Positions 20,850 through 20,924 of a stretch of 60,550 nt of DNA are shown in pieces. The position numbers and the translations under genes were made by a program. The notes below the pieces were generated by a model. It was not told the DNA's origin. It searched no databases and saw only the letters and a list, made by a program, of their open reading frames with translations. The DNA is from a virus (taxonomy: Duplodnaviria; Heunggongvirae; Uroviricota; Caudoviricetes): IMG/VR virus record IMGVR_UViG_2844443253_000004; one strand, given 5' to 3'. Position 1 is the first letter of the stretch; every line of letters begins with the position of its first letter.

Positions 20850-20924
20850 GCCGACTTAGCTCAGCAGGCAGAGCAACTGACTTGTAATCAGTAGGTCACC
20901 AGTTCGATTCCGGTAGTCGCACCA
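20850..20924 (+). tRNA. tRNA-Thr (UGU), copy with 1-nt deletion in 3' acceptor strand
   Basis: anticodon loop CTTGTAA; 3' end AGTCGCACCA versus AGTCGGCACCA in the copy at 32131-32206. Confidence 0.6.

Follow-up and report, generated by a model that had tools for sequence, protein, structure and literature searches.

The ileZ-argN(-argO) cluster of Stx phages (933W type) lies 3′ of the antiterminator gene Q and a terminator and 5′ of cargo and lysis genes, and its accepted role is the supply of tRNAs for codons that are rare in the host. tRNA genes are likewise found 3′ of Q in lambdoid phages of Shigella and Salmonella (SfI, SfV, Sf6, ST64T and relatives of P22). In SfI and related Shigella phages a tRNA-Thr(UGU) gene follows directly after Q, with the supply of host-rare codon tRNAs as its described purpose, and SfI shows an ACA codon bias relative to S. 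flexneri 301 (PMC3636060). Here we describe two tRNA cassettes of this kind in a stretch of 60,550 nucleotides (nt), the IMG/VR virus record IMGVR_UViG_2844443253_000004, which in its whole length is referred to as the window. One of them contains a tRNA-Thr(UGU) gene at 20850-20924 that has lost a single base in its acceptor stem and is probably a pseudogene of ordinary prophage decay. A literature lookup on ileZ, argN and argO returned unrelated papers only, PMC4587872 offered nothing useful on phage tRNAs, and in further lookups the SfI study was the single relevant paper.

The window is a chromosome segment of the S. flexneri type in which two lambdoid prophages lie side by side. Prophage 1 is broken up by insertion sequences (IS), whereas to the right of 28.6 kb lies prophage 2, lambda-like and largely complete ('ipaH island'), with an intact cassette. 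ARAGORN identified eight tRNAs in two sets of identical order (CAU, Arg-UCU, Thr-UGU, Gly-UCC), spanning 20693-21002 (copy 1) and 31974-32284 (copy 2). The original prediction, made from the sequence, had named two near-identical four-tRNA cassettes 11.3 kb apart, each downstream of a Q-type gene and a terminator; the offset of 11,281 nt, the aligned block, Pfam matches and folded hairpins agree with it on both points. The two late regions contain the following features:

20061-20503, + strand, Q-like gene of prophage 1 (DUF1133 family), 5′-truncated, matching Pfam DUF1133 positions 35-176 of 176
20575-20605, + strand, intrinsic terminator 5′ of cassette copy 1, with a G-to-T change at 20597
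20654-20683, + strand, sigma-70 promoter-like site TTTGCA-18-TATTAT, within the block shared by both copies, about 10 nt 5′ of the first tRNA
20693-20769, + strand, tRNA CAU of copy 1, Ile2 (ileX/ileZ-like), ARAGORN, Rfam score 70.5 bits
20771-20847, + strand, tRNA-Arg(UCU) of copy 1, ARAGORN, Rfam score 56.4 bits
20850-20924, + strand, tRNA-Thr(UGU) of copy 1, one G deleted at 70/71 (ARAGORN ends at 20923; 20924 includes the CCA)
20928-21002, + strand, tRNA-Gly(UCC) of copy 1, ARAGORN, 100% identical to host glyT
21683-21772, + strand, class II holin gene reduced to its first 30 codons by an IS at 21773, matching the holin at 32577-32792
31358-31774, + strand, complete antiterminator gene Q of prophage 2 (PF06530, profile positions 1-118 of 118, 181.5 bits)
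31861-31887, + strand, intrinsic terminator 5′ of cassette copy 2, a hairpin of -18.0 kcal/mol followed by a run of six U
31974-32284, + strand, cassette copy 2 with CAU/Ile2 (31974-32050), Arg-UCU (32052-32128), intact Thr-UGU (32131-32206) and Gly-UCC (32210-32284)
32577-34024, + strand, lysis genes of prophage 2 (class II holin 32577-32792, lysozyme 33491-34024)

Both copies therefore show the lambdoid late-region order of Q and terminator, then tRNAs, then holin or lysis genes, and the same order is intact in a relative of prophage 1 in the complete E. coli genome FDAARGOS_944. The Q-like gene of prophage 1, which also gives a weak Phage_antitermQ match, aligns with a full-length DUF1133 gene of that prophage; its first ~34 profile positions are missing and an IS3-family element ends at 20060. 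The holin remnant aligns with the holin coding sequence (CDS) of locus L011, and PF04971 (Phage_holin_2_1) is recorded on the same open reading frame (ORF) in other assemblies. Both terminators were found by direct folding of the regions. A scanner for consensus promoters and terminators called neither of them; A/U pairing that carries the stems on into the T-run is the probable reason. The hairpin at copy 1 is weakened by the G-to-T change, to -11.2 kcal/mol compared with -18.2 kcal/mol in the intact relative.

The two cassettes share a block of ~405 nt, from the terminator T-tract (about 20600 and 31881) to just 3′ of the tRNA-Gly CCA (about 21005 and 32286). It contains five substitutions, all in the leader 5′ of the first tRNA, and one 1-nt gap; the four tRNA genes, spaced by only 1-3 nt, are identical between the copies apart from this gap in tRNA-Thr. 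An identity of about 98.5% over 405 nt cannot be chance. The Q genes 5′ of the cassettes belong to different families (DUF1133 and PF06530), and the cassettes are a shared mosaic module of two different lambdoid prophages. The original prediction had called the cassette duplicated, and this holds for the presence of two near-identical copies and fails for a local duplication. The cassette is homologous to tRNA genes annotated in known lambdoid phages: three Escherichia phages match it at about 93% identity with 91% coverage, and 601 E. coli genomes contain 80% or more of it. The TTGCA and GTTATTAT motifs of the promoter-like site are conserved in the divergent L001-type cassette, where the spacer differs; because the hexamers are kept in a cassette type with a different spacer, the site suggests a transcription of the tRNAs that may be independent of Q.

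The first two tRNAs of the window show 88-90% identity to ileZ and argN of the Stx phages. In contrast to the Stx cluster, the cassettes are extended to four tRNAs by a Thr(UGU)-Gly(UCC) pair, stx is absent, prophage 2 has ipaH at its far end as cargo, and one cassette copy has decayed. SfI carries Asn and Thr tRNAs where the window has Ile2, Arg, Thr and Gly. Among 80 IMG/VR loci the commonest arrangements were Thr-Gly (30), CAU-Lys-Thr-Gly (22) and CAU-Arg-Thr-Gly (8). A further point of comparison is the host cluster thrU-tyrU-glyT-thrT of the tufB operon in E. coli: the prophage tRNA-Gly matches glyT at 75/75 positions and the tRNA-Thr matches thrU at 74/76, and because of this near-identity the Thr-Gly core looks host-derived. 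Unlike the host cluster, the cassettes lack tyrU (a 3-nt spacer stands in its place), thrT and tufB, and they are located in a phage late region.

The gap in tRNA-Thr of copy 1 is the lesion of interest. Alignment of both copies confirmed the predicted 1-nt deletion in this gene: copy 1 reads AGTCGCACCA at 20915-20924, copy 2 reads AGTCGGCACCA at 32196-32206, and the lost base is one G of a GG doublet (positions 70/71) in the 3′ acceptor strand, opposite C2/C3. The deleted tRNA-Thr species ends ...GUCGCACCA; compared at their 3′ ends, the species read ...GGUAGUCGCACCA when deleted and ...GGUAGUCGGCACCA when intact. In the acceptor stem of copy 1 the 5′ strand GCCGACU faces AGUCGC, which leaves room for no more than six pairs with a C bulged out, or for five if the ends fray. 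With the Rfam tRNA model copy 2 scored 69.8 bits and copy 1 55.9 bits, a fall of 14 bits, and in the Infernal alignment of copy 1 the acceptor stem contains a gap and one unpaired position. In the minimum-energy structures of RNAfold the acceptor helix was kept in copy 2 and lost in copy 1. The disruption of the acceptor helix anticipated in the original prediction was thus seen both in the fold and in the covariance score, and scoring of both copies with ARAGORN and Rfam returned two tRNAs of which copy 1 is the lower-scoring. The bulged cloverleaf of copy 1 has a favourable computed energy of about -17.7 kcal/mol and is about 7 kcal/mol less stable than the cloverleaf of copy 2; only this difference between the alleles is meaningful, as absolute RNAeval energies are unreliable here (there is a native A-C mismatch in the T stem, and the cloverleaf beats the reported minimum free energy).

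According to a recent review (PMC9976931, Table 1), the identity elements of bacterial tRNA-Thr are G1-C72, C2-G71, G4-C69 and G5-C68 together with the anticodon. Of these pairs, G1-C72 and C2-G71 are moved out of register by the deletion. Copy 2 has the continuous 7-bp acceptor stem with G1-C72 and C2-G71 of a functional thrU-type tRNA, and copy 1 does not; the UGU anticodon, discriminator A73 and encoded CCA are present in both. Since the acceptor helix is lost in the fold, the score is lower and the Thr identity pairs are out of register, a severe loss of charging and function is likely for the modelled copy 1 tRNA. Because the genes are only 1-3 nt apart, poor cleavage by RNase P at the 5′ end of tRNA-Thr could also hinder 3′ maturation of the preceding tRNA-Arg.

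The deletion is real, inherited and derived. Copy 2, whose context in the same assembly is identical for more than 200 nt on each side, reads GG, which makes a sequencing error tied to the local context improbable. When one genome per species was scanned for exact matches, the deleted allele turned up in S. flexneri SFBU1023 and 'E. coli' ECMA0423. Both carry the window locus at 100% identity without the 2,270-nt group II intron at 17304-19573, and because the intron is missing they represent assemblies different from that of the window. Furthermore, we retrieved ten other assemblies of the locus via the IS-truncated Q-like ORF beside the cassette. The deletion is present in nine of the ten, among them AE014073.1, which we take to be the Sanger-finished genome of S. 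flexneri 2a 2457T. Including the window, eleven assemblies carry it (L018 is the same record as L003), although their IS and intron content and their nearby single-nucleotide polymorphisms (SNPs) vary. The deletion is thus a stable lineage marker found in most sampled assemblies, and the concern that it might be an assembly error, raised along with the original prediction, is answered by these assemblies together with the GG of copy 2.

The intact relative in FDAARGOS_944 has GG, and the deletion is therefore the derived state. Measured against this intact orthologue, copy 1 carries a derived lesion in a conserved structural element, as a pseudogene would. The fragment that bears copy 1 differs from FDAARGOS_944 at seven places in 1,712 nt, five substitutions, among them the one that weakens the terminator, and two one-base indels, the tRNA-Thr deletion and an extra G in a poly-G run just 5′ of the holin start. 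This divergence of ~0.4% is the same as that of the remaining prophage 1, so that a lesion in a 76-nt gene is unremarkable. A further mutation in the same tRNA-Thr, A23G in the D stem (position equivalent to 20872), occurs in 2/10 assemblies, L017 (CP026772.1) and L019 (CP034060.1). Mutations may be accumulating in the gene, on numbers too small for a test, and in one of the ten assemblies (L016) GG is restored or retained.

The surroundings of copy 1 go beyond the original prediction: the lesion lies on an orphaned, IS-truncated and inverted prophage fragment. The elements involved are these:

9818-16550, - strand, rest of prophage 1, 99.6% identical to L011 8959-14362, with Pfam matches
16542-20060, + strand, IS3-family element with group II intron, left copy (rve, RVT_1 and GIIM Pfam matches)
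21773-23009, - strand, IS3-family element of the 1,264-bp type, with other copies at 5779-7042 and 34423-35686
25047-28565, - strand, second, inverted copy of the IS with group II intron (Rfam Intron_gpII at 25534-25620, minus strand)

The prophage of FDAARGOS_944 is an intact version of prophage 1 and has the order DUF1133, tRNA-Ile/Arg/Thr/Gly, holin, lysozyme, Rz, DedA, 254-aa ORF, terminase, portal and DUF2213. Window positions 20061-21772 match it at 99.6% on the plus strand, and positions 16550-14118 and 12786-9818 match its continuation at 99.6% on the minus strand. The 835 bp of holin, lysozyme and Rz sequence between them are gone from prophage 1. Since the pieces match on opposite strands and these 835 bp are absent, the 1.7-kb piece at 20061-21772, with truncated Q-like gene, terminator, tRNAs and truncated holin gene, is an orphan fragment cut by IS at both ends, and the alignment places it inverted relative to the remainder of its own prophage. 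The remainder comprises the 3′ end of Rz/Rz1 (read directly), a DedA-like gene, the 254-aa ORF, terminase, portal, head morphogenesis and DUF2213 genes, with the terminase interrupted by an IS at about 12787-14117.

The left IS, which removes the 5′ end of the Q-like gene, contains the intron at 17304-19573 (2,270 nt, with a reverse transcriptase/maturase ORF at 17960-19483), and this intron is precisely missing in assemblies L002 and L003. The elements at 16542-20060 and 25047-28565 form a perfect inverted repeat of 3.5 kb that brackets a segment of 4,986 nt, and the fragment with copy 1 is located in this segment. No target-site duplication was found at either IS/intron copy, neither in the present nor in a swapped configuration; in the orientation of the IS the flanks read TTT/GTG and GTC/TTG. 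The inversion was accordingly deduced from the comparison with the intact FDAARGOS_944 prophage and not from the IS junctions. The IS copy at 21773-23009 lacks 27 internal nt that are present in the copies at 5779-7042 and 34423-35686, and in S. flexneri SFBU1023 a full-length IS apparently occupies this site. Neighbouring pieces are arranged differently from strain to strain, and the arrangement of prophage 1 is typical of IS-driven scrambling. Copy 1 thus sits in an element that is non-functional, truncated and rearranged. IS3-family copies, an intron inside an IS, truncated genes, inversion, strain-variable arrangement and inactivating indels are all features shared with Shigella decay as it is known, from which this locus departs in one particular point only, the small indel in a tRNA acceptor stem.

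We determined how often the deleted allele occurs elsewhere. Among 5,426 complete E. coli genomes it was found in one, FDAARGOS_943, compared with an intact Thr-Gly junction in about 820, and in IMG/VR it was found in 2 contigs compared with more than 120 intact ones; its overall frequency is below about 2%. The cassette affected in FDAARGOS_943 and in the two IMG/VR contigs is another one, CAU-Lys-Thr-Gly, and its tRNA-Thr has three more differences, all in the 5′ half. FDAARGOS_943 has the window-type cassette intact and the other type deleted, and S. flexneri SFBU1023 has one deleted copy genome-wide. The deletion either arose twice or moved by gene conversion, which is possible because all cassette types share one sequence from the 3′ half of tRNA-Thr onwards through tRNA-Gly. 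As controls, three single-base deletions in other doublets of the same tRNA gave no IMG/VR match each, compared with two for the deletion studied, and this yields nothing firm on a hotspot. In the metagenome contig Ga0209281_1001359 (L006, about 100-330) a tRNA-Thr remnant was seen whose 5′ acceptor strand is replaced by unrelated sequence and whose AGTCGCACCA 3′ end is followed by a variant tRNA-Gly. Another metagenome contig, L007, carries a chromosomal-type thrU with the deletion and a second 1-nt deletion.

We consider it quite probable that the copy 1 tRNA-Thr is a pseudogene that arose by ordinary prophage decay, was fixed by drift and is redundantly covered. In this model both prophages carry a mobile module of promoter-like site and four tRNAs between Q and the lysis genes. 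IS elements have cut prophage 1 and left the piece from truncated Q to truncated holin orphaned and inverted, and the tRNA-Thr on this fragment is short of one of the two Gs that face C2 and C3. With a six-pair bulged or five-pair frayed stem the identity pairs for ThrRS would be shifted and the tRNA crippled or dead. Drift may have fixed the deletion, as decoding of ACA is still provided by host thrU and by the intact cassette copy 2; the intact phage tRNA-Thr resembles K-12 thrU in the 74 of 76 positions given above. Loss of aminoacylation or processing, activity of the promoter and neutrality are predictions of the model.

Several observations weigh against this interpretation. ARAGORN still calls the copy 1 tRNA-Thr, its 55.9 bits are far above the Rfam threshold of 29 bits and about equal to the score of the neighbouring tRNA-Arg, and the prokaryotic genome annotation pipeline PGAP annotates the same deletion allele in FDAARGOS_943 as a normal tRNA-Thr. 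Closure of the stem by a G1-C pair with one bulged C is thermodynamically possible, and the inactivity of the gene is what we infer from models. The same deletion also occurs on a second tRNA-Thr background, that of the L001, L004 and L005 cassette mentioned above with its three differences in the 5′ half, as well as in the 5′-truncated remnant L006; recurrence on the second background could indicate tolerance or a mutational hotspot. Assembly L016 (CP045941.1) has an intact GG (position equivalent to 20918) while sharing all other derived alleles. Finally, the codon-usage comparison made for the cassette has a single host gene, dcuC, as its baseline.

The last assembly, L016, bears on the question whether the gene is intact after all and the missing G a sequencing or assembly error, a miscall in a dinucleotide run. 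The deleted base does lie within a GG run, L007 shows the same deletion next to a second one in an assembly that looks noisy, and three CDS of the FDAARGOS_943 prophage with the allele are flagged as frameshifted. Noisy assemblies such as L007 can produce the same miscall, but this does not fit the window locus, where copy 2 reads GG in an identical context and eleven assemblies share the deletion despite differing IS, intron and SNPs. For the GG of L016 two origins are conceivable: reads from copy 2 may have misled the polishing of that assembly, or the site may truly have been converted by another cassette copy. An error is effectively refuted, and we give it next to no probability. That the deleted tRNA-Thr still decodes ACA, with G1 pairing to the remaining C and RNase P, ThrRS and EF-Tu tolerating the bulge, is unlikely, though it is the alternative we take most seriously. 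The calls by ARAGORN, Rfam and PGAP, the intact anticodon determinants, A73 and encoded CCA, and the computed energy of the bulged cloverleaf are in its favour. The allele has also persisted among S. flexneri strains and is found in a second type of cassette. However, the deletion removes a partner of C2-G71/C3-G70 and thereby affects the Thr identity elements G1-C72 and C2-G71, the acceptor helix is lost in the minimum-energy fold, and otherwise intact prophages very seldom carry the allele. On the S. flexneri fragment every neighbouring gene is truncated, this tRNA has been altered once more in two strains, and persistence over about 0.4% divergence is no sign of selection.

A deletion favoured by selection or by a mutational hotspot, with an advantage in silencing the tRNA or a new role of the bulged RNA as decoy or regulator, would account for the identical deletion on two or more tRNA-Thr backgrounds, which are never found together in a genome, and for the two IMG/VR matches where the control deletions had none. 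Yet 2 versus 0, 0 and 0 has no statistical weight, L004, L005 and L001 may be one lineage, and the identical 3′ half lets gene conversion move one mutation between backgrounds. The frequency below about 2%, and the place of the deletion in S. flexneri as one of seven scattered differences at background level, also argue against it, and we regard it as very improbable. Slightly less credible still is the version in which the same G was lost on at least two independent backgrounds, with the bulged tRNA-Thr tolerated or useful and gene conversion shuttling the allele. In such a case the RNA could serve as a poorly charged or uncharged decoy, or could escape a host or competitor factor that recognises the acceptor stem. 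Decay followed by drift remains the explanation we favour.

The other tRNAs of the cassette were characterized as well. The CAU tRNA is identical to K-12 ileX at 69/77 positions (89.6%), compared with 70.1% identity to metT. Its acceptor GGCCCUU...AAGGGCC provides C4-G69/C5-G68, as in ileX, whereas the MetRS determinants are U4-A69/A5-U68 (PMC9976931, Table 1). The matching CAU tRNA is labelled tRNA-Ile by PGAP in E. coli genomes. Both the ileX-related body and the C-G pairs at 4-69 and 5-68 are those of an Ile2 tRNA, and TilS reportedly reads these two pairs. The suggestion in the original prediction that the CAU tRNA may be an Ile2 (lysidine) isoacceptor is therefore supported in that it is Ile2-like, of the ileX type, with lysidine formation as a prediction.

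The four cassette tRNAs would read AUA, AGA, ACA and GGA, codons that are rare in the host and may be somewhat commoner in the phage genes and the ipaH cargo. ATA, AGA and GGA are 2-3 times (or more) commoner in phage ORFs than in dcuC, a baseline of one host gene that is too small, and within the window their usage is highest in ipaH. ACA barely differs between phage structural genes and dcuC, again on this single-gene baseline. Codon usage is thus suggestive of the role of the cassette.

The second position of the cassette (window 20771-20847 and 32052-32128) was found to be variable within the cassette family. Across L022-L101 and later loci, L001, L004 and L005 (IMG/VR, E. coli) its backbone is near-constant and its anticodon loop varies. 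One form is the Arg-UCU of the window type with the loop CUUCUAA; a second, 'Lys-UUU', has C for the near-universal U33 and the loop CCUUUAA. A third type has loops of 5-6 nt that are different in almost every variant (CCAGGT, TAAAT, CCAGAT, CATAGT, CTTGGT, TTAAT), and ARAGORN calls it '???' or Phe-AAA. The slot may be dispensable and decaying, or its loop may be under diversifying selection, for which evasion of anticodon nucleases is a possible reason. In E. coli RMDEC332 (NZ_CM177021.1 3368668-3369021) a cassette of 98% identity ends in a tRNA that PGAP annotates as tRNA-Val and not as tRNA-Gly, which suggests an anticodon point change.

The remaining features of the window lie outside the cassettes. 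3′ of the lysis genes of prophage 2 follow lambda-type terminase, portal, capsid, tape-measure and J genes, and its distal end bears the cargo gene. A 619-aa ORF contains Toprim_2, a weak Hom_end_hint match under the Pfam cutoff, and LAGLIDADG_3; it may be an intein-bearing primase-like gene, and its 3′ end is cut by the IS at 25047. The left part of the window contains the host gene dcuC and a remnant of a Mu-like prophage, in which the C-terminus of the transposase is cut by an IS starting at 5779:

1048-2535, host dcuC gene
3255-3764, - strand, ORF for a Mu repressor-like DNA-binding protein
4147-5781, + strand, Mu transposase A ORF
23221-25080, + strand, 619-aa ORF
57728-59491, - strand, ipaH gene for an IpaH-family type III effector with LRR_TTSS and NEL E3 ligase domains

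tRNA cassettes of this kind and prophage decay in Shigella are already known, and the sequences have long been public. If the bulged tRNA were charged after all, which nothing suggests, it would offer a natural test of how far ThrRS, RNase P and EF-Tu tolerate distortion of an acceptor stem. For the annotation of S. flexneri-type genomes the consequence is that one annotated prophage tRNA-Thr gene is probably a pseudogene. The locus thus provides a clean, small example of prophage decay in Shigella reaching RNA genes as well as protein genes.

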